Source: a virus. Taken from it: a DNA stretch of 64,000 nt. The translations under genes and the position numbers were made by a program. Within the stretch, counting starts at the first letter, position 1; the number at the start of each line of letters is the position of its first letter. Under the pieces are notes generated by a model. It saw nothing but the letters and a program-made list of their open reading frames with translations, ran no database searches and was not told the origin of the DNA. The stretch lies in the IMG/VR virus record IMGVR_UViG_3300009082_000017, positions 64,001 to 128,000 of that record; one strand, 5' to 3'. This document shows positions 19,956 to 63,469 of the stretch, in pieces.

Positions 19956-20013
19956 CTACCACATGAAATCTGGCTTTCATGGTGTAGTATAAATATAATA
20001 AAAGGAGAATGAA

Positions 20014-26001: not shown

Positions 26002-26255
26002 TATGAAAGGCAAATTCAGGAAAGACCATGACGATCACAACTATTTTATTCCAGAAATCTCTCTAGAAGCTTTTGACGATTATCAGACTAGGCTTGGATT
26101 ACTTGATTTTTATGGAGATGAGTGGGAGGCTTTGAATGATGAGTTTTTAGAAAGATTTGAGAAACTTGTTTTGAAGTACCCGCCCAATCATTATTTAATT
26201 GAAATGTCATTACCATGAAATGCCAGTTTTATTAGAATGACGGAAAGGATAAATT

Positions 26256-45081: not shown

Positions 45082-45788
45082 AAATATTAGCATTAGGATA
45101 CGGAAAGTTAGGACAAGAAATTGTTAAACAATCTGGTTGGGATTATATTAGCCGAGAAAAAAATAATTTTGATTTCAACAATATAAATTCTTACAATAAA
45201 TATCTTTACAATTATGACACAATAATAAATTGTATAGCAAACACATATACTTATTCTGACGACAAACAATCAATGATCGATACTAACTTCAAAGCAGTTG
45301 TGAACCTAATAGAATTCTCAAATTTGTATAATAAGAAGTTAATCCAAATAGGAACGGATTACATTTATGATGGGTCAGTAGAAAATGCTTCAGAAGAAGA
45401 TATTCCTGTCCATGCAAGAAATTGGTATTCTTATTCAAAACTTTTAATAGATGGATATATACAAAGCTTTTGTGAAAATTATTTATTAATAAGAACATCG
45501 TTCAAGTCCAATCCATTTCCTTATCCAAAAGCAATCACTACGCAAAAAGGTAATTTTGATTATACAGATAAAATTGTTGAAAAAATAATTAACTTAATAA
45601 ACAATAATGCAATCGGTGTTTACAATGTTGGACATAATACACCATGGACTATTTACGAAATGGCTTTAGAAACAAATAAAGATGTTGTACCTTGTGATGA
45701 TATTTTAAATGAATCAATGCCTACAAATATTACAATGAATATGGAGAAGTATAATGAGTTTATTAGAAATCTTAATACCGGTTTATAA
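45078..45788 (+). CDS. RmlD-like NAD-dependent sugar-nucleotide reductase
   Basis: GYGKLG, GTDYIYDG, YSYSK. Confidence 0.8.
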   Translation: MKILALGYGKLGQEIVKQSGWDYISREKNNFDFNNINSYNKYLYNYDTIINCIANTYTYSDDKQSMIDTNFKAVVNLIEFSNLYNKKLIQIGTDYIYDGSVENASEEDIPVHARNWYSYSKLLIDGYIQSFCENYLLIRTSFKSNPFPYPKAITTQKGNFDYTDKIVEKIINLINNNAIGVYNVGHNTPWTIYEMALETNKDVVPCDDILNESMPTNITMNMEKYNEFIRNLNTGL

Positions 45789-46446
45789 TATGCAAGGTAA
45801 GGGACTGGAAATGCTTGCATACAGTTTTAAACAACTTAAGTTGCAGCGTTTTAAAGATTTTAGCGTTCTTATTTCTGATGATTCAGAAGATGAAACAATT
45901 AAAACTTATGTAAGTGGGATCAAAGACCTAGAAATAAAATATGTAAAAAATGAAGGGATGCATAGTATTGCTGGCAATATGAATAATGCCATTAAAAATG
46001 CAACTGGAGAAATTCTTCAAGTAATGTGTCAAGATGATTATTTTTACAATAAAGATTCTTTACAAAAAATTGTAGATAATTTTGATAGGGGTAAGGGTTG
46101 GATGTGTAGTATGTATATGCATACAAAAGACAGGCTAGGGTTATTCAATCAACAAATTCCCAAATGGAATCCTAAGATTTGTTTGGATAATACTTTGGGC
46201 ACACCTTCTTGTTTGTCATTTTTGAACGATAAAGACGTTCCTTTATTGGATGAAAATTTAAAATGGTATGTTGATTGTGACCATTATTATCGGTTATTCA
46301 AAAAATGGGGCGAACCTAAGATTTTGAAAGAATTAATTTTTGTTCAGTTATTATGGGAAGGACAAACGACTCAAGGAATTACTCAAGAAATTGTTAATAC
46401 TGAAGTTGCATATATTAATGATAAGTATGTAGGAGAGTTGGGTTGA
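45754..46446 (+). CDS. glycosyltransferase family 2
   Basis: LIPVYN, ISDDS, QDD. Confidence 0.85.
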   Translation: MSLLEILIPVYNMQGKGLEMLAYSFKQLKLQRFKDFSVLISDDSEDETIKTYVSGIKDLEIKYVKNEGMHSIAGNMNNAIKNATGEILQVMCQDDYFYNKDSLQKIVDNFDRGKGWMCSMYMHTKDRLGLFNQQIPKWNPKICLDNTLGTPSCLSFLNDKDVPLLDENLKWYVDCDHYYRLFKKWGEPKILKELIFVQLLWEGQTTQGITQEIVNTEVAYINDKYVGELG

Positions 46447-47096
46447 AAAAATATTTAAAAGATGTTACTCTCCTTGCATATGATACTCGCCCAGATAAAA
46501 TTGAAGGGACTATTTGGGCACTACAAAAATGTTGTGAGGGATTAGATTTTTATGAGGTTAAGTTGTTGACAGATATAATGCCTGATAATTTACCTGAAAA
46601 TATTAAATTGGAATATGCTCCACACATTAATCATATTAATGATTTTAATTTGTATATGTTCTTAGAGTTAGGGAAACACATAGATAGTTCACATTGTTTG
46701 TATGTACAGGATCATGGGTTTGTTATTTCGCCTCAGATTTGGCGTGATGAGTGGTTAGAATACGATTATATTGGGGCTGGATGGAATTGGATGCCTGATG
46801 CTTATGTTTGTCATGAAACGGGTGAACATGTTCGACAGGGCAATGGGGGATTTTCACTTCGCAGTTCTCAAATTTTAAATTTGCCTAAAGAAAAAGGGTG
46901 GTATTTGAAAGAAGAACAAGGCTGGAAAAATGAAGATGGACAAGTGTGTGTTTATTGGCGCAAAGATATGTTAAAAAATGGAATAAAATATGCCCCTATT
47001 GAAGTTGCATCTGTTTTTTCTTATGAAAAAGATACCCCAGAGAATATGAATATTAAAGAATTTTTCGGATATCATAGAAATATGCCTAGGAGATAA
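46443..47096 (+). CDS. DUF5672-like putative glycosyltransferase
   Basis: YDYIGA.W, GNGGFSLRS, ED, FGYH. Confidence 0.7.
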   Translation: MKKYLKDVTLLAYDTRPDKIEGTIWALQKCCEGLDFYEVKLLTDIMPDNLPENIKLEYAPHINHINDFNLYMFLELGKHIDSSHCLYVQDHGFVISPQIWRDEWLEYDYIGAGWNWMPDAYVCHETGEHVRQGNGGFSLRSSQILNLPKEKGWYLKEEQGWKNEDGQVCVYWRKDMLKNGIKYAPIEVASVFSYEKDTPENMNIKEFFGYHRNMPRR

Positions 47097-47098
47097 TA

Positions 47099-47755
47099 TT
47101 GAATAAACTTTTTATAATTAGTCGATATAATGAAGATTATTCTTGGATAAAAGAATATACTAAAAATTATCTTATTTATAATAAAGGTGATCTAATTTTA
47201 GATGATTCTCACGTTATCAATACCGAAAATATTGGTGGAAATCAACGAGACATATCCAAATTTGCTTTTGAAAATTATAATAATTTACCAGATATTATGA
47301 TATTTATTCAGTCGTTTGTTTGGGATCATTGTAAAAAAGATATTTTTGACAACCTAATCCAAAATACAACATTTACCCCTTTGGAATATTATGGAAGTAT
47401 TCCGGCAAATGGATGGGAACAAAGAGATGAATTTGGAGGGTTCCTTGAGACGAATAATAATTGGTACATTTCTGCACATAATTCAACTTATAATTTAACT
47501 TGCAGATATGAATCTTTTGATCAGTTTATGAATAAATATTTTGAAGACTACCAACATTTAGATTTTATTCGTTTTGCTCCAGGTTCACAATATATCATTA
47601 CACCAAAAGAAATTTTACAATATCCAAAAACATTTTGGAAATGCTTGATGGAAGAATTGACAACAAAAAATTCAACTGAAGCGCACATCGTAGAAAGAAG
47701 TTTATATTATATTCTTAATGGTGATTATAATTTGAGAAAGGATTTTTATGGATAA
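47099..47755 (+). CDS. DUF3431-like protein
   Basis: ISRYNED..W, IYNKG, F.PG.QY, HIVER. Confidence 0.65.
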   Translation: MNKLFIISRYNEDYSWIKEYTKNYLIYNKGDLILDDSHVINTENIGGNQRDISKFAFENYNNLPDIMIFIQSFVWDHCKKDIFDNLIQNTTFTPLEYYGSIPANGWEQRDEFGGFLETNNNWYISAHNSTYNLTCRYESFDQFMNKYFEDYQHLDFIRFAPGSQYIITPKEILQYPKTFWKCLMEELTTKNSTEAHIVERSLYYILNGDYNLRKDFYG

Positions 47756-48683
47756 TTTTTCACAATACAAACCAGGTTTACATAAATTGGTTCATCATTT
47801 AGATCATTTAAAAAAATTACAAAACAGAGAACCATCCTCCCCTTTACATTTATCTGTTTTCCCTACAAATTTTTGCCAATTAGAATGTCCTTATTGTGGA
47901 TTTAGAAAAGTAAAAAGAAATAACACAGAATTATCTTTTGAAGATTTTAGCAAAGCAATTGATGTTTTAGTAAAGTATGGGTTGAAAGCTATGGAACAAT
48001 CAGGTGGTGGTGATCCTCTTTTATGGTCTCATTTTGATAAGGCAACAGAATATGCATATAACAAAGGTTTGAAATTATCACTAGTCACTAATGGATTGGA
48101 ATTAGGTCACATGTCATCAAAAACTTTATCTTTATTTTCTTGGATACGAGTTTCAATACAATCAGAAGCATATGCAAGAAAAATAGATTTGAGTAAAATT
48201 CCAAATAATATAAAAAGAAGTATGTCATTTATTGTTCACGATGAAAAATCTTTTAATGAATTGGATAAAATACATGAATTTGCAAAAGAAAAAAATATTC
48301 TTATTAGGATTGCACCAAATAGACCTTGCGACAAAAGTTGGGCAAATAAAGTAAAAGATAAAGCAGAAAATTTAGGACACCCATTTTTGTTTTTTGAAAA
48401 ATCTAATGAAACTCCTAACGGATGCTACATGGCTTGGATAAGAGCAGCATTAGATTGGGAAGGTAATTTTCTTCCTTGCCCATCAATTGAATTGACACCA
48501 GAATGTGCTGGATATATTCCTGATAATTTTAAATTATGCAAAGTGTCGGAATTGGAAGAATGGATTTTAAATAACCCTGTACACGATTTAGGACATCGTT
48601 GTAAATTCTGCAATTGTGGTAAAGACACAAATGATTTTGTGTATGGGATGCTTCAAGATATAGAGGATGTGGATTTTGTATAA
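47748..48683 (+). CDS. radical SAM protein with C-terminal SPASM/twitch-like cysteines
   Basis: CQLECPYC, SGGGDPL, VTNG, C..C..CKFC. Confidence 0.85.
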   Translation: MDNFSQYKPGLHKLVHHLDHLKKLQNREPSSPLHLSVFPTNFCQLECPYCGFRKVKRNNTELSFEDFSKAIDVLVKYGLKAMEQSGGGDPLLWSHFDKATEYAYNKGLKLSLVTNGLELGHMSSKTLSLFSWIRVSIQSEAYARKIDLSKIPNNIKRSMSFIVHDEKSFNELDKIHEFAKEKNILIRIAPNRPCDKSWANKVKDKAENLGHPFLFFEKSNETPNGCYMAWIRAALDWEGNFLPCPSIELTPECAGYIPDNFKLCKVSELEEWILNNPVHDLGHRCKFCNCGKDTNDFVYGMLQDIEDVDFV

Positions 48684-49314
48684 TATTGATGGGAATTTTT
48701 TTGATAAAGATTATTTTGAAAATGGGAAACAAACCAATAAAAGTTTCTATGAAAATTATCATTGGATGCCTCAAAGAAGTTTTAGAGAAGCGTTAGCTTT
48801 TATTGACTGTTTGCAACTCAATGAAAATTCTTATGTTCTAGAAATTGGCTGTGCGAAAGGTTTTCTTATTCGTGCATTAAGAGAATTAGAAATTAAAGTA
48901 GATGGTGCAGATATCAGCAATTATGCCTTGTCGTTTGCACCGGAAGGATGTTGGAATTGCTCGAATGATTCTTCTTGGGATAACCATGCTAATTTTGGAT
49001 ACACAAATATAATTATCAAAGATATGTTGGAACACTTGAATAAAGAACAATTGGGAATATCTTTAAATAATTTTTCAAAAGTTTCAAATAAAATGATATG
49101 TGTTGTTCCAATTGGAAGCAATGGTAAATATCGAATCCCAGAATATGAATGTGATCAGAGCCACGTCATACGAGAAAACGAGTCATTCTGGTATTGTTTT
49201 TTTGAAATGAATGGTTGGAAAGTTATAAATCATTTTCCACATTTAAAAGGGATAAAAGATAATTGGACTCATTATCCTGATGGCAACCATGTTTTTGTAT
49301 TGGAGTATAAATAA
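48667..49314 (+). CDS. class I SAM-dependent methyltransferase
   Basis: VLEIGCAKG, GADIS, DMLEH. Confidence 0.85.
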   Translation: MWILYNIDGNFFDKDYFENGKQTNKSFYENYHWMPQRSFREALAFIDCLQLNENSYVLEIGCAKGFLIRALRELEIKVDGADISNYALSFAPEGCWNCSNDSSWDNHANFGYTNIIIKDMLEHLNKEQLGISLNNFSKVSNKMICVVPIGSNGKYRIPEYECDQSHVIRENESFWYCFFEMNGWKVINHFPHLKGIKDNWTHYPDGNHVFVLEYK

Positions 49315-50168
49315 TGTTGAGTATTGATTTAACCGGTAACTGCGGAGACCAAATCCTACGCTACTGTATTTGCAGAAGTGTAGCTGAAAAAAACAATTAT
49401 AGGTATGGGATAAATTCAATTACTAGTAATGATTATTATAATGGAAAAGGACAATTATATTTTTTTAAGGGTATTGATTATGGTGAACCTAACAATACAC
49501 CCTTTAGTCAATTGCCCCCAAACACAGACAATGTTTGGGAAGAAAAAAGAGAGTTTTATCAAGGATATAATTTTCATCCTTTCCAACCAGATATTTTTGA
49601 TGTTACACCTAATACTAAATTGATAGTTTATTGTGGACAAGATGCATTCTATCTGGATAAAGAAAAAGTTTCGAAATGGTTAGAGATTAAAGATGAATAT
49701 GCGGAAGAATCTAAAAGGTTATTAGAAGGATCAGAAATTGAATTAAATGAAAATACTTGTGTGATTAATTGTCGTGGTGGAGAATATAAATCAGTTCCAT
49801 CTTTATTTTTAACACATAATTATTGGGACAAAGCAATTGCTTTTATGAAACAAAAAAATCCTAACTTTAAATTTATTGTTGTTACGGAAGATCCAGAATT
49901 TTATAAAACATTTTTTGATGTACCTGTTTATCATTTTAATATTCATACTGATTACTATATTCTTAATAATGCAAAAAATATTATCGCTTCAAATTCTGGG
50001 TTTGGAATATTTCCGATTTGGACTAATAAAAATAATCCATATGTTATCGCCCCTTATTTATGGGCGAATCATAACTACGGTGAGAATGAGGAGTGGGCAA
50101 ATTCGAATATGAGAAGTTGGGATTGTTTTAATTTTATGGATAGGGATGGAGAGTTGTATGACAAATGA
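49314..50168 (+). CDS. GT11-like (alpha-1,2-fucosyltransferase family) glycosyltransferase
   Basis: GNCGDQ, INCRGGEY, VTED, IASNSGF. Confidence 0.75.
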   Translation: MLSIDLTGNCGDQILRYCICRSVAEKNNYRYGINSITSNDYYNGKGQLYFFKGIDYGEPNNTPFSQLPPNTDNVWEEKREFYQGYNFHPFQPDIFDVTPNTKLIVYCGQDAFYLDKEKVSKWLEIKDEYAEESKRLLEGSEIELNENTCVINCRGGEYKSVPSLFLTHNYWDKAIAFMKQKNPNFKFIVVTEDPEFYKTFFDVPVYHFNIHTDYYILNNAKNIIASNSGFGIFPIWTNKNNPYVIAPYLWANHNYGENEEWANSNMRSWDCFNFMDRDGELYDK

Positions 50169-50186
50169 GTTGCATAAGGGCGGAGT

Positions 50187-50906
50187 ATGTTTATTTATAA
50201 AACGACAAACTTAGTTAATGGTAAAATTTATATAGGGCAATCTCAGCACGACATTAGTTTTGATTATTTAGGTTCTGGAGTATTGTTTACAAAAGCTATA
50301 AAAAAATATGGAAAGAAAAATTTTAAAAGAGAAATTTTAGAAGACGGTATTGTTGATATAAAAACATTAAATGATAGAGAAATTTATTGGATAGAATATT
50401 TTCATGCGACGGATATAAATATAGGATATAATATTTCTATAGGAGGATTCGGTACAATAGATCCTACTGGAAGAGTTGCAAAAAGAATATCTGAAGGAAG
50501 AAAAGGGGTTAGGTTATCTGAAGAGTCTAAAAAAATATTATCAGATGCACATCTTGGAATAAGACAAACAGAAGAAAGTAAAGTGAAAATATCAAAAACA
50601 TGCAAAGAGAATATAGAAAAATTTGGTCATCCTCAAGCGGGGATACCTAAACCTGAAGAATTAAAAGAAATTATGCGGAGAAATTCTCAAGGCAAAATTC
50701 GTGGAGGGGCATCCAAATATATAGGTGTTCAAAAAGGAAGAAGAAAAAAGTGGAAATCCCAAATAGTTTATAAGAAAAAGATTTATTATTTGGGAGAATT
50801 TGACGATGAAAAAGATGCGGCAAGAGCATATAATAATAAAGCATTAGAGCTTTATGGGACAACCGCTAGATTAAATATTATAGAAGAGGATGAGAATAAT
50901 GAATAA
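50187..50906 (+). CDS. GIY-YIG homing endonuclease with NUMOD3 and AP2 domains
   Basis: FIYKTTNLVNGKIYIGQS, YLGSG, SEESKKILS repeats, YLGEFDDEKDAARAYN. Confidence 0.88.
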   Translation: MFIYKTTNLVNGKIYIGQSQHDISFDYLGSGVLFTKAIKKYGKKNFKREILEDGIVDIKTLNDREIYWIEYFHATDINIGYNISIGGFGTIDPTGRVAKRISEGRKGVRLSEESKKILSDAHLGIRQTEESKVKISKTCKENIEKFGHPQAGIPKPEELKEIMRRNSQGKIRGGASKYIGVQKGRRKKWKSQIVYKKKIYYLGEFDDEKDAARAYNNKALELYGTTARLNIIEEDENNE

Positions 50907-51636
50907 TTTTAAAATTTATTTTAGAATTTCTAGCAAGGGCAATCCACTTGGACGCACAGAACTTTCTGGTACTGAATTAGATGGAATTACTAGACAAGAT
51001 TGTTTTAATAATTTATTAAGAGTTTTTGGTACAGAGAATTTAATAGTGATTGCAGATAATGCTGACGATGATGTAATATCATTTTTACAATCTAAAGGAA
51101 TAAAAAATATTGATAGAACATATTTTGGGAATACTCTTAGTTTTAGATATATTTTAGATCGAGCAGTTAGTGAATTAGATGAGGATGGCATTGTTTACTT
51201 TTTAGAAGATGACTATGCTCACAATTATAATGCCGAAACAATAATTAGGGAAGGGCTAGAAATTGGGGATTATGTATCCTTATATGACAGCATGGACAAA
51301 TACAAAGATACTGATAAAGGAGGATATAATCCCTTTATTCATAATGGAGGGGAAGATACGAGAGTGATGATTACAGATACTTGTCATTGGAAAATTACAA
51401 ATGCTACGACTATGAGTTTTGCTTCAAAAATAAAAACGTTGCGAGAAGATTATGGTGTAATTACAAAATATTGTCCTAATGGCGCACAGCATCCCATGGA
51501 TTTTTTGATGTTTAGAGAATTGGTTACGCAAAAAAACAGAAAATTAATCAATCCTATCCCTGGATATTCTGCACATATTGGGCTTGAAATGTCACCTTTT
51601 GTTCCATGGATTAAATTATTAAAAGGAGAATTATGA
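50890..51636 (+). CDS. GT-A fold putative glycosyltransferase
   Basis: VIADN, YFLEDDY. Confidence 0.7.
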   Translation: MRIMNNFKIYFRISSKGNPLGRTELSGTELDGITRQDCFNNLLRVFGTENLIVIADNADDDVISFLQSKGIKNIDRTYFGNTLSFRYILDRAVSELDEDGIVYFLEDDYAHNYNAETIIREGLEIGDYVSLYDSMDKYKDTDKGGYNPFIHNGGEDTRVMITDTCHWKITNATTMSFASKIKTLREDYGVITKYCPNGAQHPMDFLMFRELVTQKNRKLINPIPGYSAHIGLEMSPFVPWIKLLKGEL

Positions 51637-52256
51637 GTAAAGATATTGCTATTGAAGTACTTAAATATTTAGATTTTAATGATGGGGTGTACTTTGACGC
51701 AGGCGCGCAAAATGGCGAATTTCAGTCGAACACAGTCATTTTAGAAAGAGCAAAAAATTGGACAGGTATACTTGTGGAACCATCTCCAAAAGCATATAGT
51801 GATTGCTTGAAAAATAGAAGCCAAGAAAAAAATATTATTATTCATGGAGCATTAGTTTCTGCCGATTATGGTAAACCTACTATTATGGGGGATTTCTTTG
51901 GTCATCCTATGAATAGTATTGGTGGTAAAAGATTAAATAATGCAGGTAATTCTGTTATTGAAGTTCCCGCTTATACTATGAATGAAGTTTTGGAAAAATA
52001 TAACGTTGATAAAATTGATTTTCTAAGTTTGGATATCGAAGGGCTAGAATACTGGGTATTGAAAGATTTAAACTTTGATAAATGGGCACCAAAATGGGCA
52101 TTGATTGAATGGAACGAAGGGGAAGATGAATTATTTCCATTTATGAAAAGTAAAGGATATGACTGTGTTGGAAATATTTCTGATTTTAATTTAGTGGACG
52201 ACCCTCAATGGCCTCAAACACACCAAGACTGGCTCTTCAAATTAAAGGATAAATAA
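51633..52256 (+). CDS. FkbM family methyltransferase
   Basis: DAGAQNG..SNT, GILVEP, IDFLSLDIEGLE. Confidence 0.88.
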   Translation: MSKDIAIEVLKYLDFNDGVYFDAGAQNGEFQSNTVILERAKNWTGILVEPSPKAYSDCLKNRSQEKNIIIHGALVSADYGKPTIMGDFFGHPMNSIGGKRLNNAGNSVIEVPAYTMNEVLEKYNVDKIDFLSLDIEGLEYWVLKDLNFDKWAPKWALIEWNEGEDELFPFMKSKGYDCVGNISDFNLVDDPQWPQTHQDWLFKLKDK

Positions 52257-52260
52257 TATT

Positions 52261-53079
52261 ATGTCAAAAGTCTATGACGTTCAAACAGTCTTTAATGAAA
52301 TTGATACATGGATGCTCCGTTTCGAGGTCTTGAATGATTCAGTAGATTATTTTGTAGTTAACGAGGCACCGTTAACTTTTAGTGGCAAACCTAAACCTTT
52401 ATATTTCTGGGAGAATCGTGATAAGTTTGCAAAATTTTCAAACAAAATTATCTACAATGTTTTTGACGAAGAAAAACAAGGTTGGGATCAATGGGATAGG
52501 GATAGAGAACATAAAAATGGAGCGATGAAAGCTCTTGAAGGTGTCGCCAATGATGAAGATATAATTTTCTATTCCGATGCTGACGAAATCTGGAACCCTT
52601 CCAATATCAATTTTGATAATTTTAAAGATGACACTTTATATATTCTATACCAATCGGTATATTATTACTATCTAAATTGCCTTTGGGAAAATACTGTAGA
52701 CCCAACTGCCATTTGGAGAGGGAGCCGTTATAGCTCCTATGGTTTATTAAAAAATCATTCTTTTGATGCTTTTAGAGCATACGATGGGTATTTCTTCCAG
52801 AATCAATTATTTAAAAAAGAATATATTAATAAAGGTGGTTGGCACTTTTCATTCTTAGGAGGCGCTGAGAATATTAAATATAAAATAGATTCTTACGGCC
52901 ATCAAGAACTTAATGTACCTGTTATTAATGATAATGTTCAAAATAATATTGATGCTTTACGAGATCCATTTTTCAGACCAAATTTCAGAATTAGTCCCAT
53001 TGATATAACTTTAGAGACTCATCCTAAATATTTAGTTGATCATTTAAATGAATATAGTAAATATATTTATAAAAGTTAA
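52261..53079 (+). CDS. GT17-like (beta-1,4-GlcNAc transferase family) glycosyltransferase
   Basis: FNEID, TFSGKPKPL, SDADEI, GGWHFSF. Confidence 0.85.
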   Translation: MSKVYDVQTVFNEIDTWMLRFEVLNDSVDYFVVNEAPLTFSGKPKPLYFWENRDKFAKFSNKIIYNVFDEEKQGWDQWDRDREHKNGAMKALEGVANDEDIIFYSDADEIWNPSNINFDNFKDDTLYILYQSVYYYYLNCLWENTVDPTAIWRGSRYSSYGLLKNHSFDAFRAYDGYFFQNQLFKKEYINKGGWHFSFLGGAENIKYKIDSYGHQELNVPVINDNVQNNIDALRDPFFRPNFRISPIDITLETHPKYLVDHLNEYSKYIYKS

Positions 53080-53092
53080 TTTGTTTTAACCC

Positions 53093-53121
53093 TTGACAGA
53101 TTTTAGTTTATGTGTTATAGT
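53093..53121 (+). promoter_or_regulatory. sigma70-type promoter
   Basis: TTGACA-17 bp-TATAGT; upstream TTGTTTTAACCC is shared with the promoter at 57652. Confidence 0.8.
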
Positions 53122-53151
53122 AATAGAAATATATTGGGTTAGGAGGATAAG

Positions 53152-53787
53152 GTGAAATTAGACCAAATTTTTGAATTAGGATATTTAATCAATTTAAAAG
53201 AAAGAGTTGATCGTTGGGAATTATGCGATCATGAGTTCTATAAAATCAATTATTATCCACAACGATTTGAAGCAATTAAAAATGAAGTAGGTAGAGTTGG
53301 ATGCTTTCTTAGTCATTTAGAAATATTAAAAAAAGCACAAAGAGAAAATAAAAATGTTTTAATAATGGAGGATGATGTAGAGTTTGATGAAGATTGCAGA
53401 CAAGTATTGGAAGCGTCTCTAGACGAACTTTGTGATTTAAATTTTGATATGGCTTATTTCGGTGGGAATATTCTCCGTCCATTTTTCCAAGTCACAAAAC
53501 ATTGGGCAAGATTAAGCCATTGCCAATCAACCCATTGTTATAGTATTCATCGAAATTTTTTATCAACAATTATAAATTTTCTTGAAAATAATTCTACTCA
53601 AAAAACAGGATTGGCAATTGATCAATTATATGCAGACTATCTTATTCCTAATTGTAAAGCTTATATTATTATGCCCATAATCGCAAGACAACGTTCGGAT
53701 TTTTCAACTATTGAAAATAGAGAAGTAACTTATGATTTGCCGGTTAAAAGATATTGGCATTATTTGGTGAAAAATGAAAAAGTGTAA
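53152..53787 (+). CDS. GT25 family glycosyltransferase
   Basis: INLKERVDR, GCFLSH, IMEDDV. Confidence 0.85.
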   Translation: MKLDQIFELGYLINLKERVDRWELCDHEFYKINYYPQRFEAIKNEVGRVGCFLSHLEILKKAQRENKNVLIMEDDVEFDEDCRQVLEASLDELCDLNFDMAYFGGNILRPFFQVTKHWARLSHCQSTHCYSIHRNFLSTIINFLENNSTQKTGLAIDQLYADYLIPNCKAYIIMPIIARQRSDFSTIENREVTYDLPVKRYWHYLVKNEKV

Positions 53788-54619
53788 AACAATTATATTC
53801 TCTCGCAATCGTCCTCTTCAATTAACCTTATGCCTTAAAACATTATTAAATCATTGTACGGACATTTTACAACAATCAAACATTACAGTTTTATACAGAA
53901 ATGATGAGGAATATCGGCAGTCTTTTGACAATTTAATGTTGGAATTTCCCCAAATATCGTTCAAAAAGGAGGAAAATTTCAAAAAAGACCTGCTTTCTTT
54001 GCTACCACATGAAAGCAACATTTCATGGGGTAAAAATGAAGGTTTTGTCACTTTTGTTGTCGATGATCAGATTTTCACCGAAGATTTTTCAATGAAAGAA
54101 GTTATTTCAACACTTGTTGAAAATCAGGATTGTATAGGGTTTAGTTTACGTCTTGGCAAAAATTGTGTACGATGTTTCCCTTATGATTGTGAGCAAGCAA
54201 TTCCAAAGACAGAAAAAGTTTCAAAGAATGTTGTAAAATATAATTGGCAAGAAGCAGAGTATGACTTCAATTATTGTTTAGAGTTATCTGCAAGCGTTTA
54301 CAGGGTAAACGACCTTATAGAGATGTTTGAGATTTGCGATTATGACTCACCCAACCACCTCGAATCAATTATGAGTTCGTGTTTTTATAAGGACAAACCA
54401 AACCTTTTAATGTTTGAAAAATCGGCATCCTTCAGTTATCCGATGAATAAGGTTCAAACATCACACCCAAATAGGAGTGGAGATTTCAATCCTGACACTC
54501 TTAGATTAATTTATGAAAAGGGTGGAAGATTTGAAAATAAGCAATTTGATGGTTATATTAGTAATGGAGCACATGAGATTCCAGAAAGTATAAATTTGGT
54601 GGACACATATGGCAAATGA
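53774..54619 (+). CDS. GT-A fold putative glycosyltransferase containing an in-frame dyad site
   Basis: FSRNRPLQL, FVVDD, FSLRLG; dyad at 54005-54030. Confidence 0.7.
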   Translation: MKKCKTIIFSRNRPLQLTLCLKTLLNHCTDILQQSNITVLYRNDEEYRQSFDNLMLEFPQISFKKEENFKKDLLSLLPHESNISWGKNEGFVTFVVDDQIFTEDFSMKEVISTLVENQDCIGFSLRLGKNCVRCFPYDCEQAIPKTEKVSKNVVKYNWQEAEYDFNYCLELSASVYRVNDLIEMFEICDYDSPNHLESIMSSCFYKDKPNLLMFEKSASFSYPMNKVQTSHPNRSGDFNPDTLRLIYEKGGRFENKQFDGYISNGAHEIPESINLVDTYGK

Positions 54620-55391
54620 TCTAGTAAGTATCTTAACCCCCACATACAACCGTCCAGACTGGTTAGTATTAACATTGAAATCATTAATTGCACAAACCTA
54701 TACTAATTGGGAATGTATCGTGGTAAATGATGCTGGTATGGATGTTGGTAATATTATAAAAAATCTTGACGATAATAGAATAAAATATTATACAAACCCC
54801 GTTAATTTGGATTTGTCGGGTACGCGCAATGTGGCAACAGAAAAAGCAACTGGTGATTGGTTTATTATGCTTGACGATGATGATCAACTTTTTCCAGAAG
54901 CCATTGAATTTAGATTATGGAGAGCACATAAATTAAATGCAGAAATAGTTTATTCTAGGGTTTTGCAATGTTATTACGAAAAACGAGATAATGGTTATCA
55001 ATATATTGGAGAAAAGCTTTATTGGGACAGCATTTATGACCCAGATTTGATACTTTTGCAAAATGTTAGCCCTTGCAATGGAATAATGTATTCTAGGAAA
55101 GCGCAAGAAGTAGGAGGATTGTTTGATACCGAATTAAAAGCAGGAGAAGATTGGTCGCATTCAATTGCTATGTCAAGACATTATCCGTTTTATGAAACTA
55201 AAATTATTGACTGTAGTTGTAGTTTTCGGACAGACAATAACCAAATGACCGGTAGCCGCAATTTTGCAATAGATCAAGCAAAGATTTATAAAAGATGGCG
55301 TTCGACAGCAAAGAACTTATCTTGGGTAGTTGAGAATCAAAACAAATCATTATTAGCACGAGGGATTAATCCTTCTGACTTTGGACTATAG
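54609..55391 (+). CDS. glycosyltransferase family 2
   Basis: VSILTPTYNR, VVND, LDDDD, ED. Confidence 0.9.
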   Translation: MANDLVSILTPTYNRPDWLVLTLKSLIAQTYTNWECIVVNDAGMDVGNIIKNLDDNRIKYYTNPVNLDLSGTRNVATEKATGDWFIMLDDDDQLFPEAIEFRLWRAHKLNAEIVYSRVLQCYYEKRDNGYQYIGEKLYWDSIYDPDLILLQNVSPCNGIMYSRKAQEVGGLFDTELKAGEDWSHSIAMSRHYPFYETKIIDCSCSFRTDNNQMTGSRNFAIDQAKIYKRWRSTAKNLSWVVENQNKSLLARGINPSDFGL

Positions 55392-55402
55392 GAGAGAATA
55401 AA

Positions 55403-56515
55403 TTGACCCGTTTCGCAATGTTTTATTCAGACGACATTGGCTCGTTGAATTGCAGCCTTTATAATATTATTTATCCAGCAAAATATATTAATGAAAAATA
55501 TCCAGGAATTCATTCTGCTGACACTTTTAATATTAATCAATTAAATCAATGGACTCCAGAAGTTGTAGAGTCAATTGAAAAAGCAGATTTAGTATTGATT
55601 GAAAGAAATTTATTTGGCGATGCACTCATTCGAGAGATGCAACTTTTTTTACAAAATAAACCTGTCGCATTAATATGGGATGATTCTTATGAAAATATTT
55701 GCGAGGAGAACGCTAGTTTTTCGTTCTGGCACGATAGTCTTGTTCAACGTCAAAATGAAAAAGGAGTATTAGAAAATATAAAAATATTTCCGCATAATAT
55801 TACACAACTTCGTAAAGCAGCTAGATTGGCAAAAGCATATATTGGGCCATCTAGATTACTTGCAGAAGATTGGAGTAAATATACTGATTCTTATCGCATT
55901 TATAATTATTTAGATTTGGAACGTTATCCTGAAGATTCTAAACCATTGTTGCCTTTCAATGGAATTACTATTGGTTGGTGTGGATCTCTTTCTCATGTAT
56001 CATCTTTTACTGAAAGTGGAATTATTCCTGCTTTAACTTATATCGGTAGAAAATATGACAATGTTAGAATTATGACAGGTGGAGACAAAAGGATTTATGA
56101 TAAAATTAATCTTCCGAATACAAGAAAAATATTTTCATCATATGTTCCAGATGAACAATGGGCATCGTTACAAAAAAGTGTAGATATTGGTATTGCCCCA
56201 CTTACGTCATCTTTTGATCGTCGCAGATCACATATCAAAGTATTAGAATATATGCTTTTGAAAATTCCATGGATCGCCAGTAATTTTGAAACATATGAGG
56301 AATTGGGTGAATATGGGCATCTTATTGAAAATGGGGTTGACAATTGGAAGAAGGCTATGAGTGATGCAATTGAAAATATTGATAAGTATCGTGAGTTAGC
56401 GAATGGTAAAGCTTATGAGTTTGCCAAAGAACAAACCTATGAAAAGAATATTGATAAATTGATCGCTGTGTACCAACAGATTATAAGTTCTCCTGATAGA
56501 GATGACCCACAATGA
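55403..56515 (+). CDS. GT-B fold glycosyltransferase (GT4-like)
   Basis: IGWCGS..H, DIGIAPL...KVLEY...PWIAS. Confidence 0.85.
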   Translation: MTRFAMFYSDDIGSLNCSLYNIIYPAKYINEKYPGIHSADTFNINQLNQWTPEVVESIEKADLVLIERNLFGDALIREMQLFLQNKPVALIWDDSYENICEENASFSFWHDSLVQRQNEKGVLENIKIFPHNITQLRKAARLAKAYIGPSRLLAEDWSKYTDSYRIYNYLDLERYPEDSKPLLPFNGITIGWCGSLSHVSSFTESGIIPALTYIGRKYDNVRIMTGGDKRIYDKINLPNTRKIFSSYVPDEQWASLQKSVDIGIAPLTSSFDRRRSHIKVLEYMLLKIPWIASNFETYEELGEYGHLIENGVDNWKKAMSDAIENIDKYRELANGKAYEFAKEQTYEKNIDKLIAVYQQIISSPDRDDPQ

Positions 56516-57408
56516 TTGAAAGAATATCTGCAATTTATTCCATAAGAAATATTATTACAAATATGAGATATATTGGTGCATCTACAGATATTAAGAAAAG
56601 ATGGGATAAGCATAAAAGATATTTAAAGCACAACAAACATTGGAATTTTTTATTTCAAGAAGAATATAATATTTATGGTGAAAACGCATACGAATATACA
56701 ATTGTTCAATTGCTACCGTCAGACAAAGAATTACTAAAATTTATGGAAACATATTGGATTGTGTATTACGATTCTTTTGTTGATTGTGGGAAAGGATATA
56801 ATTTGACATATGGTTCTCCAAATTTTTGCCCATCAAATACTACGAGGGAGAGAAATAGAGAAGCCCAAAAGGGAAAAACAATGTCCGAAGAAACAAAAAA
56901 GAAAATATCTGATTTCATGTCCAGCGAAGACAATCCACATTTAGGAGCAAAAAGAAGTGAAGAAACAAAAAAGAAAATGTCAGATGCCGGAAAAGTAAAA
57001 ATATTTACAGAAGAACATAAAAAGCATTTATCAGAATCTTTATCTGGTGAAAATCATCCGTGGTTTAATAAACATTTACCAGAAGATACAAAAGAGAAAA
57101 TTGCAGAGGCTCAAAGAGGAGAGAAAAGCCCTAGGTTTAATTGGCAATACACAGAAGAGGAATTGGACTTAATTTCTAGAGGAAGACAGGGAATAAAAAA
57201 TAGCGGAGAACATACGAGTACTTATGTTGGAGTTTCTTTTTCAGATGCAACATGTGAATGGAGATCTTCTATCACTTTTAGAAAACAGGTTTATAATTTA
57301 GGCTTTTTTAATGATGAAATAAATGCAGCTAAAGCTTATGATAAAAAAGCTATTGAATTATATGGCGAGAATGCTAAAACAAATTTCCCAAAGGAAAATT
57401 ATAAATGA
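56512..57408 (+). CDS. GIY-YIG homing endonuclease with NUMOD3 repeats and AP2 domain
   Basis: AIYSIRN...YIGAS..R, SEETKKKIS/SEETKKKMS, LGFFNDEINAAKAYD. Confidence 0.88.
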   Translation: MIERISAIYSIRNIITNMRYIGASTDIKKRWDKHKRYLKHNKHWNFLFQEEYNIYGENAYEYTIVQLLPSDKELLKFMETYWIVYYDSFVDCGKGYNLTYGSPNFCPSNTTRERNREAQKGKTMSEETKKKISDFMSSEDNPHLGAKRSEETKKKMSDAGKVKIFTEEHKKHLSESLSGENHPWFNKHLPEDTKEKIAEAQRGEKSPRFNWQYTEEELDLISRGRQGIKNSGEHTSTYVGVSFSDATCEWRSSITFRKQVYNLGFFNDEINAAKAYDKKAIELYGENAKTNFPKENYK

Positions 57409-58077: not shown

Positions 58078-59253
58078 TTGAATTTCAAAAGGAAGGAGGA
58101 ATACATTATATATAAAACGATTTTTGTTCCAGTGAAATGCAATAAAAAAGATTTTGAATACATAAAAACTTTAAATAAAATTTCTGCAAATGTGTGGAAT
58201 TATTGTGTTGAAATAGACAAAGAAAATGGTCAAAAATTAACTTTATCGCAATTAGAATTTATGACTAAAAATAAATTTCCATTACATGCAAAAGGAATAC
58301 ATCATATTGTTTTTAAATATTTGAATGCAAGGAAGTCAATGTGGGAAGTTATTAAAAAGAATAAAGACAATGGAAATAAAATAACCTTACCATATAGATT
58401 AAAAGAATATATGCCCACTGGTTGGGATTCACAGGCAATACATCCAGAATATGACAATAATAAAATTAGGCTTACTTGCATTTTGGGTAGAGGACAAATT
58501 GTTTGCAAAGTTAAATCAATACCCAACAATATCGCAGAGATTGAATTGGTCTATAAAGACGAATATTATTTATCTATCAAATATAAAGAAGAAAATGATA
58601 CAAATTTAATTCAATCGGATAATATTGCTAGTATTGACCTTGGAGAAATTCATGCAATTACAAGCATTGACAAATTTGGGAATTGTGTTATAGTTACTAA
58701 TAGAAAGATTCGTAGTTTAATTAGATTAAAAGATAAAAGACAAGGCGAATTACAATCTTTAAGATCAAAATGCGTCAAAGGAAGCAAACAATCTAAAAAA
58801 TATACAAAAGCAATTTATGATATTAAATATGAGTTTGATAACAAAATTTTGGATGCGCTTCACAAACAAACAAATTTATACGTCAAATGGTGTAGAAGTC
58901 ATAAAATTTCGAAAGTTTATTATGGAGATTTAGATACCACTACTAGAAACAGCAAAGGCAAGAAAAGTCAAAAAATAAATCATAAATTAAGTATGTGGAG
59001 ATTTGGTATATTAATTAAACAACTTCAATATAAACTTTTTCAATATGGTATTGTAATGGAAGAAATAAGTGAAGCATATACAAGCCAAACTTGCCCAAAT
59101 TGTGGCAATAGAAAAAAGACGGGAAGTAGAAACTATTCTTGTAAGTGTGGATACATTCAACACAGAGATATTGTAGGTGCAATAAATATATTGAATTTTA
59201 ATACAGATACTGATTTAAAAATGTATAAAAACAAGGTATATCTACAAATCTAG
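58078..59253 (+). CDS. tnpB: TnpB family RNA-guided nuclease with C-terminal zinc ribbon (no transposase)
   Basis: SIDLG, YGDL, EAYTSQTCPNCG, CKCG, HRDIVGAINI; start uncertain (AAGGAGG near 58093 is followed by ATT/ATA). Confidence 0.88.
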   Translation: MNFKRKEEYIIYKTIFVPVKCNKKDFEYIKTLNKISANVWNYCVEIDKENGQKLTLSQLEFMTKNKFPLHAKGIHHIVFKYLNARKSMWEVIKKNKDNGNKITLPYRLKEYMPTGWDSQAIHPEYDNNKIRLTCILGRGQIVCKVKSIPNNIAEIELVYKDEYYLSIKYKEENDTNLIQSDNIASIDLGEIHAITSIDKFGNCVIVTNRKIRSLIRLKDKRQGELQSLRSKCVKGSKQSKKYTKAIYDIKYEFDNKILDALHKQTNLYVKWCRSHKISKVYYGDLDTTTRNSKGKKSQKINHKLSMWRFGILIKQLQYKLFQYGIVMEEISEAYTSQTCPNCGNRKKTGSRNYSCKCGYIQHRDIVGAINILNFNTDTDLKMYKNKVYLQI

Positions 59254-59375: not shown

Positions 59376-61021
59376 AAGTAGCAAATATATTATTTGCTCA
59401 AATTATTTAAGGAGAAAATATGAACAACGAATATCAAGACTGGCGATCCATTCTCAATCCACCTACAAAAGATGGTGAGATTTGGATTTATGCTTATATT
59501 TGGGACGACGGATGGTGTATCATTAGAAAATATTATTACATGTCTGAGGGATTCAAAAAAGGTACGGCAAGATGGATGCCCATTATAGTTCCTCAACCAC
59601 CTACCGATGTAGATTTTAGTTTATATGAAACCCCATAAAACGACTGTTTCATGCGCAAAAAAAGGAAAATAAATGAAAAAATCTAAAAAAGCAAAATTAG
59701 TAATCACAGAAAAACAATATACTAAAAAAGAATGTCAACTTACTTGCCCACATTGTCATACTGAATTTCATTATATGAATGGATTTGATGAAAATATTTT
59801 ATTATACAAATGTACTCAATGTGGAAATTCTATTAGACTATATGATTAAGGATAAAATAAAATGCCCCTAGATAGAGACCTAGAAGATACTCGTGACGAA
59901 GAATCATATCAAAACTATTCTGATGAAAAAGAAGAAGCATTTTGGGATGAGGTTGATTATGAATATGATAGAATGATGGATGATAAAATGGATAAAGAAA
60001 ATTGGTGAAAAATATGACTGATCAACCGGCTGATAGTTATTGTAAAGGATGTAAATTTTTGAAATTAATTTATGAATTGGATGACAGGCAATATTATTTT
60101 GGATGTGAAAGCAAAATGACTTGTGATAAAATTAAAGAAAGTGAAGAAAACAAAAATGGCAGAGAAAACTAACCCTATCTATAAAATTTGTACTTGTTGC
60201 CAAACCCCATTCCACTATACTAAAAAATGGAATGACAAAATTCTCGAACAAGAAGCCATCAAACGATATGGTGATACTGTGGTGAAGCAAGAGGGTGTTG
60301 AAATTTGTAAGAAGTGTTGGGATGGGTTGGAGAAACCGGAAGGAAATAAAAATGATTGATGCTGAAAAATTAAGAATTATTACTAAAGAAGGTAGTATTA
60401 AAAAAGAAAAAACAATTTTGGAAAAAATCAATGATTTTATTGAATATGTAGAAAAAGAAATAAAATATAAAGCGTCAAATGGATTTTATTCTGCAAAAAT
60501 TGATCCTATTAATTTTGATAAAAATTTAATAGACACAAAAATAATCAATGAAATTAGAAAAAAACTAGAAAATTTTGGCTATAAAGTTGAAATGGATTAT
60601 ATTAGTGATGATATTTATATTAGTTGGTATAATTCATGAAACCGGTATTTCATGTGGTAAAAAGGATAAAAAATGACAAAAAATAAATGTATATATGAAA
60701 AATGGGGTGTATATTTTGCTCAGGGATGTACGGATCAACATATATCAGAGCACACTTGTAGTGATTGGTGCATATGCCCAAAATGCGGAAAAGAAATTGA
60801 ATTTTATGTTGAGCCAGAAGAGTACAGAGAAAAACAACCAGAAATTTATGAGGATGTAACTAGTGAAAAATGGTTCGCTGAAATAGTTTTTGAAGATGGA
60901 GAGCGCATTAAAGCTATTGGGAATTCTAAAATGGATGTTACTTTGAGATGGAATAGACTGCAAAGAGAATTATTATAACCCCACGAAAGAACCATTTCAT
61001 GAACTTGATTAAATTGGTATC

Positions 61022-61050
61022 TTGACAAGTACATCAAAGTATGATAAACT
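61022..61050 (+). promoter_or_regulatory. sigma70-type promoter
   Basis: TTGACA-17 bp-TAAACT with TG extension. Confidence 0.8.
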
Positions 61051-61592
61051 TATTAAAATTGAATTTACATTAAGGAGAAAATATTATGAGTAGCAATAAA
61101 GGTATGAAAAATTTAGATATTGAAAGTATGAAAGGCGATATTAATAGTGACGAGAATACAACAAATGCAATAGACGACTTTGAACCAACCGACGCAGAAT
61201 TACAAGAAATGATGAAAGAACTCCACATCGAAGAAGAAGCAGAAACCAAGAATAAAATTTTAGAAGACTGGTCGGAAGTGACTTGTATTTCTTGCTTAAA
61301 GCCAGTAGACTTAATGAAGGCAGTTTTCATTGATGAAGCACCTTACCATAAACATTGTGCAGAAGAAGAGTTGCGATATGAAGACTAGTATTACACAAAA
61401 CGAATACGAATTACTTACTTTTTTAAAATCGCAACAAGATCAATTGGAACGTATGTCTAACCGTATGTATTATTATGCAAAGAAACTCTTAGAATTAGAA
61501 GATGACAACTGGCTCACAGATTACTTTAATGATACTATTGGTGTTACGGCGTTTTTGAATCAAGTTGGTATTGATATTGATACGAAAAACCC

Positions 61593-61621
61593 TTGACAGA
61601 TAGCGAATAATGTAGTAAACT
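61593..61621 (+). promoter_or_regulatory. sigma70-type promoter of the tyrosine recombinase
   Basis: TTGACA-17 bp-TAAACT, followed by AAGGAGG. Confidence 0.8.
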
Positions 61622-61646
61622 TATCTTATAGAAAAGGAGGCATCAC

Positions 61647-62597
61647 ATGGTTACTGAAAAAAATAAAAAAGAACTCAAAATAATTGAGAAAAAAGAATTA
61701 GATAAATTCTTGCATCGCAAGTCTATTAAGTCTGAGCATACTAGGAAGTCATACAAAAATTGCATTGGACAATTGTTTGATCATTATAATATTGAAACGA
61801 TAGAAGATTATCAAAAACTCACATTGTCTAATTTCGAAGATTATCTTAATTCTTTACCAATCAAAGATGCCTCGTATAATCAACACCTTCGCTCTCTAAA
61901 GGTTTTCTCGTCTTGGTTAAAGAAGCATGATAAAATTCAAGAAGATATCCTCCAACCAATTAAATTGACTAAGGTAAACGCAGTTACTGGCGATAAAGAA
62001 TATGATAAGAAAAGACGAGCGAAAGAAAAGTTATATCTTACAGATAATGAAATTCAAAAAATGATTGCTGTGTCAAAAAATATAAATTCTAAATTAGCTA
62101 TTGCCCTTATGGGGTATATGGGACTTCGCAGAGAAGAACTTGTTGGTTTGACTATCACAGATGTTCATGGAGATTTCTTAGGGATTCCAGGGAAAGGCGG
62201 TACATACGAAGAAAGAAAAATGCCTCCTGCTGTAAAGTTTTTGGTAAATGAATATTTGAAAACCAGAAATAATAATTCTGAATATCTTATCGTTTCAAAA
62301 GTTGGGCAACATCAAATTACAAATACCAATTCTATTTATGAAAGGATCAAATCTGCCGGAAGAAAAGCTGGAATTGATGCCGAAAAAATGAAATTAGTTA
62401 CCCCACATACAATGAGACGAAGTACTGCTTGTAATGCTGTACTTAGGGGTGTTCCAAGTACTGTAGTCAAAGAGATGCTTAGGCATCAACGACAAGTTAC
62501 AACTGATATCTATTTGGAAGCGTTAAAAGGATCTGAGGCAGTTGATGCAGCTTTTGATTCACAACCAATGCCCGATATGTCAGTTTTGATGGTATAG
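61647..62597 (+). CDS. XerC/XerD-like tyrosine recombinase
   Basis: SAM-like N-domain (SEHTRKSY...LRSLKVFSSWL); catalytic GLRREE (R), GKGG (K), HTMRR (HxxR), LRH, TDIY (Y); 316 aa, no arm-binding domain. Confidence 0.93.
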   Translation: MVTEKNKKELKIIEKKELDKFLHRKSIKSEHTRKSYKNCIGQLFDHYNIETIEDYQKLTLSNFEDYLNSLPIKDASYNQHLRSLKVFSSWLKKHDKIQEDILQPIKLTKVNAVTGDKEYDKKRRAKEKLYLTDNEIQKMIAVSKNINSKLAIALMGYMGLRREELVGLTITDVHGDFLGIPGKGGTYEERKMPPAVKFLVNEYLKTRNNNSEYLIVSKVGQHQITNTNSIYERIKSAGRKAGIDAEKMKLVTPHTMRRSTACNAVLRGVPSTVVKEMLRHQRQVTTDIYLEALKGSEAVDAAFDSQPMPDMSVLMV

Positions 62598-63469
62598 GAG
62601 AATAACATGGAAATCGAATTATCTAAACTAGAATGGGAAAGATTTTTAACCTACCATGAAGAAAAATATGGTGAGTATGGATGGTATCCAAATTTAACCG
62701 GAGTAAACGTAGTAGATAGAAATACTGGTAAGTTGGTTGGATTTCGTCAAAATATTCCAGAGCGATGTTTTATTTTGGAAGAATGGTTAGTGGGGACACC
62801 ATGGGAAAAATTTGTAAGTGTAACCACGGTTACTAATTAAAAGGATAAAAAATGAATATTTTTAATATGTTGATAATTCTGTTCCTTGTGTTAATGTTTT
62901 TTATTAGTTTGACTATTGATTCAAAATATTATAATAAATCGACAGGGGAGTTGCCATAATGACACATGTTACGGTTCATCAACTTACAGCAAGAAATAGT
63001 GAGAAAGTTTTCTTAAATGTCGATAATGATGTTTATGGATGTGTTAGTGTTTGGGGATCTTGTTATCAAAGACGAACATTTTTAATTCAAAAAGATTGTG
63101 ATTTTTATCTTATGCAATTTGAAAATGATGAGTATTATAAAGAATGGCAAGAAAGCGAATCTGGTAAATTTTGGAAAGATGCAAGAATAACAGAAATTTT
63201 ACCAATTATTAAAGATGATTATTACACCATGAAATAGAGATTTCATTCGGTTGAAGAAAGATAAATTATGAGTAAACCTATTATTACAGAAATTAGTGAC
63301 GAAGATGGTCTTTATGAAATTAGAGAAGATTATTTGGGTAAAGAAATTATTCCTTGTAAAGACGTAGAAAAATGGGGGAATAATAGTTTTTTTGGAAATA
63401 AATTGAATGGATTTATGTCTGGCCATTTTATAGTGGATGGTAGAGAAACTTGTTTCTTTGCTGTAAAAT

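Follow-up and report, generated by a model that had tools for sequence, protein, structure and literature searches.

The 64,000-nucleotide (nt) stretch analyzed here (the window) comprises bases 64001-128000 of the viral IMG/VR record IMGVR_UViG_3300009082_000017, the whole of which we call G000. Positions are those of the window unless another sequence is named. The window encodes a tyrosine recombinase, rec1 (61647-62597, plus strand), in the midst of an array of short palindromic dyads with arms of ATRAAA and TTTYAT around a spacer of 6 base pairs (bp). The ATRAAA-N6-TTTYAT dyads are real and constitute a genuinely interesting recombination landmark: each spacer is private to its site and conserved between genomes, while the genes between the dyads change. 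The assignment of rec1, an intact Xer-like enzyme, to these sites is plausible. Below we describe the recombinase and the dyads, and then weigh rec1 against the other proteins and functions that could account for them.

The Recombinase rec1

rec1 encodes a Xer-like tyrosine recombinase of 316 amino acids (aa) that consists of a core-binding domain, a linker, and a catalytic domain. The protein matches the Pfam family Phage_integrase (PF00589, 3.5e-21) and PHROG 1, integrase (7.9e-34). The initial annotation, made from the sequence by eye, reported an intact R-K-HxxR-H-Y set, and this is borne out. The seven catalytic residues (R161, E164, K183, H254, R257, H280, and Y289) lie in order in the C-terminal domain. 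All seven are invariant in 13 homologs of 47-80% identity and in a wider set of 22 relatives of 28-75% identity. The gene is intact and under purifying selection, and its sequence predicts a catalytically competent enzyme.

The nearest solved sequences to rec1 are those of the XerA of Pyrococcus (4a8e, 3.9e-18), a second XerA (5hxy), and XerD (1a0p), with IntI4 matching weakly. The AlphaFold2 (AF2) model has a mean predicted local distance difference test score (pLDDT) of 84, with helices over residues 4-93 and 117-314, and it has the two-domain C-clamp architecture of a helical core-binding domain and a catalytic domain. A Foldseek search with this model ranked XerA best (5hxy and 4a8e), followed by the lambda Int core, IntI4, XerD, XerH, Tn1549 Int, and Cre. 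The Foldseek probability was 1.00 to XerA, the lambda Int core, XerD, XerH, and Cre over ~290-320 columns. MrpR, YopR, and SroF were lower-ranked fold matches. The model and the Foldseek matches place the core-binding domain at the N-terminus, and there is no arm-binding domain.

NCBIfam profile scores were used as a proxy for placing rec1 among XerC/D, XerA, XerS, and IntI. The protein falls below every equivalog cut-off tried: it scores 125.5 bits against a cut-off of 220 for XerA_Arch, 77.4 against 335 for XerC, 66.5 against 330 for XerD, 32.8 against 267 for XerS, and 40.8 against 265 for the integron integrase (TIGR02249). Residues 146-291 align with residues 131-279 of XerD with small gaps only. 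There is thus no IntI-type insertion between the catalytic K and HxxR, and the earlier view of rec1 as a duplex, Xer-like type rather than an integron integrase agrees both with this alignment and with the lack of covariation in the dyad arms (below). Among phage Xer-like enzymes, rec1 stands in a clade of its own; the clade is new, the kind of enzyme is known, and its setting is unusual. It is also a conserved core gene in a group of large Firmicutes-type siphophages.

The Dyad Array

Dyads were counted as matches to ATGAAA-N6-TTTCAT with at most one mismatch. By this rule the window holds 54 dyads (756-63246), mostly at gene junctions, where 2.08 are expected, and none of 100 shuffles reached 54. 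The whole of G000 holds 94, most of which come after a stop codon and before the Shine-Dalgarno sequence that follows. The symmetry extends over ~10-11 bp per arm, with ~ccCC/GGgg outside the arms, and the outer spacer positions follow a "not A / not T" rule. As first annotated, rec1 is flanked by a dyad on either side. The nearest upstream dyad is ACGAAA-GAACCA-TTTCAT (60983-61000) and the nearest downstream dyad is ATGAAA-TAGAGA-TTTCAT (63229-63246); both have the same spacer at the syntenic place in G004, a 143-kb relative of G000. TTGACA boxes are often found 11-22 nt 3' of a dyad, e.g., after those at 35357, 38581, and 60983. Inverted-repeat scans found no other site of dif-like geometry.

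The arms of the dyads do not vary as the two sides of a stem would. At the variable arm positions in three genomes, Watson-Crick pairing is at or below the level predicted from independence; the pair -1/+18 in G000 is complementary in 40 dyads against 49 expected. The two single variants ATAAAA...TTTCAT (21) and ATGAAA...TTTTAT (16) are about equally common in G000, and the compensated double change ATAAAA/TTTTAT is absent from its dyads. Since the arms do not covary, we read the dyad as two half-sites in duplex DNA to which a dimer binds, rather than as a hairpin. The same three observations led us to reject an RNA hairpin, a terminator, and an attC-like folded site as explanations of the dyads.

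Spacers as Addresses and the Exchange of Cassettes

Among the 94 spacers in G000, 2.1 identical pairs would be expected, yet every spacer there is different. Between G000 and G004, 48 spacers are identical and perfectly collinear (3.1 expected). The genes common to these genomes share only 64-91% DNA identity, and the flanks of the 48 shared-spacer pairs share 34-38% identity beyond 10 nt on either side. Flank identity was taken from anchored ungapped comparison together with protein searches; free-end global alignment gives ~0.75 even for unrelated AT-rich DNA. Within 450 nt of the shared spacers, protein similarity was found on neither side in 22 of 47 pairs and on one side only in another 16. 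The arms differ despite the same spacer in 27 of the 48 pairs.

A closer pair of contigs, L066 and L067, are 99.6-100% identical elsewhere but differ in the cassettes between shared dyads. Between the spacers TGGTGA and TAGCGA, L066 encodes a C5-methylase (DNA_methylase, 409 aa, L066 3815-5086), whereas L067 encodes a Dam-methylase (MethyltransfD12, 239 aa, L067 3456-4284). Anti-restriction or epigenetic cargo seems to have been swapped here. A 61 aa gene is present in one contig and absent from the other between the dyads TGAGCT and TAATGC. The breaks between L066 and L067 fall within a few bases of the dyads. Taken together, the conserved spacers, the unrelated flanks, and the dyad-bounded swaps lead us to regard the dyads as fixed "addresses" with gene content exchanged between them.

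Conservative site-specific recombination, as carried out by Cre, Flp, Xer, and lambda Int, requires a matching overlap region. The dyad spacers vary freely in sequence but not in length, each belongs to a single site, and they are kept between genomes; these are hallmarks of a tyrosine-recombinase core site.

A Candidate Recombinase for the Dyads

The initial annotation proposed rec1 as the best candidate in the window for the protein acting on the dyads. It is the sole recombinase in the window, and to that extent the proposal stands; a second intact recombinase, rec2, is encoded elsewhere in the genome, and the action of rec1 on the dyads is inferential. We infer that rec1, rather than rec2 or another protein, would bind and cut the dyads. 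That it acts on them, with same-site resolution included, is plausible, though we would stop somewhat short of calling it probable.

In the mechanism that we propose, rec1 would assemble as a homodimer or tetramer and recombine phage DNA at duplex core sites resembling dif. The dyads are the only sites of this kind in the genome and would be its candidate substrates. Tyrosine recombinases need identical 6 bp overlaps, so that only two dyads with the same spacer could recombine. Copies of the same address would be available on sister genomes, in multimers, and on a co-infecting relative. Recombination between them would resolve or join phage genomes in register and, between relatives, would exchange the genes between two addresses with gene order kept. 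In its full form this would be an address-coded system of ~100 dif-like sites with shared arms and private 6 bp overlaps, in which rec1, possibly together with the small downstream protein ORF C (see below), recombines like with like. We consider the full form possible but rather doubtful.

It has long been asked how genes can turn over so fast in large-phage accessory regions with gene order kept, and the usual answer is "illegitimate" or short-homology recombination. An intact, non-lysogeny recombinase in company with dyads of the expected geometry, arm type, and spacer behavior is a concrete and testable alternative. If the address-coded reading is true, the system would be nature's own version of cassette exchange at heterospecific lox sites and would explain the turnover of hyperplastic regions without loss of gene order. 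If the link between rec1 and the dyads is true, the dyads would also be a ready-made set of mutually orthogonal recombination sites.

One check suggested with the initial annotation was whether the rec1 clade and the dyads co-occur, and the outcome is mixed. Dyad arrays are present in seven of the nine sampled rec1-family contigs. ATGAAA dyads occur in contigs of all five sampled lineages of the rec1 clade (at least 46% identity), and the symmetric variant ATAAAA-N6-TTTTAT occurs in the distant clades P0030 (31% identity) and P0176 (29%). The arm variant tracks the rec1 lineage, with ATGAAA at 46% identity or more and ATAAAA in the clades of 29-31%. The two contigs without dyads are L063 (P0028, 39% identity), which carries the nearest outgroup homolog on an 8.4-kb fragment, and L070 (P0034, 33% identity), a 10.4-kb fragment. 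IMG/VR scans with P0028, P0034, and P0030 for longer contigs returned only proteins of 23-24% identity or nothing.

The initial annotation named close homologs in genomes without the dyads as a refutation of its proposal, and these two contigs go part of the way toward it. They weigh against rec1 as the recombinase of the dyads, and so do several other observations. Bacillus phage Tsamsa (KC481682.1, 1-50000, L074) has 14 ATAAAA-N6-TTTTAT dyads against 2 in the control, and they lie between stop codons and Shine-Dalgarno sequences. In Alicyclobacillus phage KKP_3916 (OQ846916.1, L090-L101) there are 12 exact ATRAAA-N6-TTTYAT dyads, compared with 0 in the control. Neither phage has a detected member of the rec1 family: their best profile scores are 62-67 bits, whereas the best 150 library hits all reach at least 102 bits. 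The dyads and the rec1 family therefore each occur without the other. The paper that described Tsamsa makes no mention of the dyads or of palindromes, inverted repeats, stem-loops, hairpins, or intergenic DNA. Because dyads are present in these cultured phages, the question is open to bench work.

Other points against rec1 come from the source genome. No dyad adjoins rec1, the nearest being ~650 nt away on each side, and the intact rec2 lies 73 nt from a dyad and beside a RuvC-like gene. One gene occupies neighboring slots in the two genomes (G000 64753-65463 and G004 124964-125675, 91% DNA identity). Its flanking dyads have the spacers CATCTA and TTTCCA in G000 and GAACGA and CATCTA in G004. 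The gene has moved by one slot, a shift that strict same-address exchange leaves unexplained. Homologous recombination through 18-26 identical bp could also produce such cassette boundaries. In G004 and in contigs of the wider family, an AAA_24 (Sak4-family) gene is called close to rec1. A read-level check used the one run found to contain the sequence, probably the source sample (freshwater sediment), with contigs at ~10x depth, over positions 1-20000. The contigs are unbroken there and have no informative joints at dyads, an outcome that favors neither side.

A different possibility is that rec1 acts at one site, possibly a single dyad, to resolve multimers or to circularize terminally redundant DNA, and that another protein binds the array. 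We regard this as possible, if on the unlikely side. Cre/loxP in P1 and XerA/dif in archaea are precedents for such resolution or circularization, and the families closest to rec1 (XerA, XerH, and XerS) are single-recombinase dimer-resolution systems. The alignment of G004 runs unbroken through the ends of G000 (1 and 160042), at G004 63731-65044, so the "linear" record is a complete circle or a circularly permuted genome, as a function of this kind would suit. Early expression from a host-type promoter, the proximity in many contigs of rec1-family genes to the replication module (AAA_24, Prim-Pol, and DnaB), which follows a few kb downstream, and the presence of dyads in phages without the rec1 family are likewise in its favor. 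However, the sites of single-recombinase Xer systems adjoin the recombinase gene (PMC5357621), and the promoter is the only non-coding DNA conserved beside rec1. The inverted-repeat scans, which gave no dif-like site other than the dyads, also argue against it.

The second recombinase, rec2, lies outside the window (G000 15909-16943, minus strand) and is 24% identical to rec1. It is located between the RuvC-like gene (G000 17015-17482) and the tape-measure gene, in the stretch G000 10226-17482 (locus L007). The tape-measure gene is itself split into two parts (G000 14733-15845 and 10226-13051) by an HNH endonuclease open reading frame (ORF; 13263-14558). rec2 is of the type described as gp50 in Tyroviruses, where it has the same place just before the tape-measure gene. 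The dyads could be substrates of rec2, perhaps together with the RuvC-like resolvase, and rec1 would then have an unrelated role. We judge this improbable. rec2 keeps the R, K, HxxR, W, and Y residues of an intact enzyme, the dyad close to it is upstream of its start, the RuvC-like gene adjoins it, and it is also present in G004. The dyad-bearing Tsamsa has a rec2-type protein as well (gp227, 25% identity). On the other hand, a putative site of 11-6-11 geometry, GAAGATTAAGA-GTAACA-TCTTAATCTTC, belongs to the Tyrovirus counterpart and does not resemble the dyads (PMC9703825). Lactococcus phage PMBT69 has the rec2 type and only 1 dyad in 128 kb, while KKP_3916 has dyads and no rec2-type match. 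Furthermore, the dyad arms are the same in G000 and G004, yet their rec2 proteins share only 48% identity, whereas their rec1 proteins share 76%. rec2 is thereby a weaker candidate for the dyads than rec1.

It is quite unlikely that rec1 binds the dyads mainly as a regulator of transcription. The model for such a function is MrpR (YopR) of Bacillus phage SPbeta, an experimentally shown case in which a protein of the tyrosine-recombinase fold represses genes by way of a dispersed intergenic repeat, SPBRE, in a large Firmicutes siphophage (PMC10516654). The placement of the dyads between stop codon and Shine-Dalgarno sequence, often 11-22 nt before a TTGACA -35 box, would suit a regulator. MrpR, YopR, and SroF are among the fold matches of rec1, and one member of the rec1 family has a weak MrpR_C_cat match. 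MrpR, however, no longer has the catalytic residue at four of the seven positions (V/S, N, V/R, and V there) and is a catalytically dead repressor of a temperate phage (PMC10516654). rec1, in contrast, keeps all seven across the 22 relatives and is found in a genome without detected lysogeny genes. Regulation would also leave unexplained why no spacer recurs within a genome while relatives share them.

A role for rec1 in lysogeny, as the integrase of a temperate phage that would target an attB in an unsampled host, is likewise quite unlikely, despite the family name "integrase" in PHROG and Pfam and despite the Tyroviruses, related giant siphophages with several tyrosine recombinases that are described as temperate (PMC9703825). 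The initial annotation saw no lysogeny module near the gene. Searches of the whole 160-kb genome detected no HTH_3 repressor, AAA_31-type ParA, ParB, serine recombinase, or HTH_17 excisionase, so that the statement is valid genome-wide. A search for ParM (PF06406) matched neither G000 nor the control genomes and carries no weight. A pattern-based scan of 185,579 bacterial and archaeal species (GTDB, one genome each) yielded rec1 relatives of at most 31% identity, and thus no prophage form was seen. Unlike integrases of the lambda Int type, the protein begins with its core-binding domain and lacks an arm-binding domain. In every relative the gene is found mid-array among small, co-oriented early genes, and never at a contig or prophage boundary.

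Comparison with Known Systems

Among the systems closest to rec1 and the dyads are the single-recombinase Xer systems XerA/dif of archaea, XerH/difH of Helicobacter and Campylobacter, and XerS/difSL. rec1 shares their two-domain fold and has every residue of the catalytic set; by sequence, profile, and fold alike, its best match is XerA. The dyads, as candidate sites, are palindromic with ~11 bp arms and a 6 bp center, like the sites of these systems. In Helicobacter pylori, difH is TTATGAAAA-CTGCAC-TTTTCAAAC (PMC3325230). The arm core ATGAAA/TTTCAT resembles TTATGAAAA-N6-TTTTCA of that site, whose center is likewise 6 bp long (PMC3325230). Unlike the single-recombinase Xer enzymes, rec1 is phage-encoded, has no adjoining site, and gives no sign of FtsK coupling. 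Instead of one chromosomal dif there are ~100 candidate dyad sites with different centers.

Cre/loxP of P1 is a second parallel, as both Cre and rec1 are phage-encoded tyrosine recombinases without a need for arm sites. Cre has one natural site, with a 13-8-13 geometry. The dyads, in contrast, would be ~100 natural heterospecific sites of ~10-6-10, and the similarity of rec1 to Cre is at the level of the fold only. Under the proposed mode of action the dyads would be comparable to the engineered heterospecific lox sites (lox511 and lox2272), where only identical spacers recombine and two addresses allow ordered cassette exchange.

The integron integrase and its attC sites, with integrons reported in phages as well (PMC9892861), share with rec1 and the dyads the combination of a tyrosine recombinase and many imperfect palindromes 3' of promoterless small genes, and cassettes are gained and lost in both. 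rec1 lacks the IntI insertion, and the dyads are not folded hairpins. An attC also travels with its cassette, whereas the dyads stay as fixed addresses while the genes change. The PeSL cassettes of T4-type phages resemble the dyads in that short intergenic motifs border exchanged genes in hyperplastic regions (PMC2839356, PMC4122927). They are units of a promoter and a stem-loop and are thought to use homologous recombination (PMC2839356, PMC4122927). The dyads differ in being non-covarying palindromes with a 6 bp center that is fixed in length, specific to each site, and conserved.

The Tyroviruses (Tsamsa and the Thrax phages) are Firmicutes siphophages of 160-170 kb with three conserved tyrosine recombinases and, in the part of the account available (PMC9703825), a single putative attP only. 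They share with G000 the possession of several Xer-like recombinases, one of which is encoded just before the tape-measure gene, as is rec2 (PMC9703825). They have no recombinase of the rec1 family, with a best profile score of 67 bits.

The rec1 Promoter and Neighboring Genes

The initial annotation assigned the recombinase its own consensus promoter and placed its start at 61593. The promoter holds up; position 61593 is the start of its -35 hexamer, and the gene itself starts at 61647. The promoter (61593-61621, plus strand) is of the sigma-70 type, TTGACA-17-TAAACT, matches 10 of 12 consensus positions, and lies within the 3' end of the upstream ORF. Exact matches to TTGACA-N16-18-TAAACT occur four times in the window (22183, 57652, 61022, and 61593) against 0.06 expected, and three of the four have an upstream TG. 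The rec1 orthologs in L003, L004, L044, and L043, with proteins down to 46% identity, have TTGACA, 17 nt, and then TAAACT, TAATAT, or TAGACT upstream. As it is kept in five lineages in all, the promoter is more than a chance match to the consensus. From these motifs, rec1 is predicted to be expressed early, from a host-type promoter. The Shine-Dalgarno sequence AAGGAGG (61634-61640, plus strand), 6 nt 5' of the ATG, is as strong as first described and is kept in relatives.

A second TTGACA-17-TAAACT promoter (61022-61050, plus strand) is located 22 nt past the dyad at 60983 and serves the small ORFs upstream of rec1. These are two overlapping ORFs of 100 and 88 aa (61086-61596, plus strand) whose DNA is conserved in G004 (G000 125182-125533 and G004 26199-26551, 69% identity). 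The neighbors of rec1 are all small and all on the same strand, in agreement with the initial annotation, and the six neighboring ORFs searched against Pfam gave no significant match (one was far below the cut-off). The only conserved non-coding DNA adjoining rec1 is its promoter. In relatives, the gene is found 3' of a glycosyltransferase cluster and a few kb 5' of replication genes.

Directly downstream of rec1 is ORF C (62607-62840, plus strand), which encodes a 77 aa protein of no known family. Counterparts of 35-37% identity lie beside rec1 in L044, L004, L003, and L043. The gene had been called stand-alone, and the conservation of ORF C next to it in four lineages means that it is not entirely so. 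ORF C may be an accessory factor of rec1. The predicted complex of the two proteins scored 0.39 against 0.00 for the best control, with a partner pLDDT of at least 83 and agreement between runs in at least 97% of contacts. In calibration, 58 of 80 solved complexes attained the mark, as did 2 of 110 mismatched pairs, and passes of 0.60 or below were more often wrong than right. The model lends weak backing to the pairing of rec1 with ORF C.

The window contains three TnpB-like ORFs (5265-6575, 33399-34598, and 58078-59253), all of which match PHROG 506, "transposase." The last of these was the only one searched in Pfam, where it also matches Cas12f1-like_TNB. A tnpA was not seen next to any of the three. 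In L044 and L045 a TnpB gene is located 1.2 kb upstream of the rec1 homolog. We considered a linkage between TnpB and rec1 and rejected it: the TnpB-like ORF nearest to rec1 is 2.4 kb upstream with ~8 genes between, and it is missing beside rec1 in most relatives.

The Source Genome and Other Genes of the Window

G000 is 160,042 bp long with a G+C content of 31.8%, and CheckV rates it 100% complete. It has the look of a siphophage and encodes tape-measure and minor-tail proteins. Its Pol III alpha-type polymerase is 30-33% identical to the versions in Alicyclobacillus, Brevibacillus Sundance, and Moorella phages. When the region was compared with 50,697 phage records by megablast, nothing matched, so it has no annotated close relative.

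Auxiliary genes in the window include a nicotinamide phosphoribosyltransferase (16050-17510), an ATP-dependent DNA ligase (24441-25580), an RNA ligase (29394-30482), and a radical-SAM protein (35656-36645). There is one tRNA-Arg(TCT) (11335-11411). The region 43000-57400 consists of ~16 overlapping ORFs of 200-380 aa, with aminotransferase-like and glycosyltransferase-like genes among them, and glycosyltransferase genes were called at the matching place in relatives. It holds only one dyad (54009), which is inside a gene conserved in G004. The region may encode a sugar or DNA-modification pathway that is inherited as a single block.

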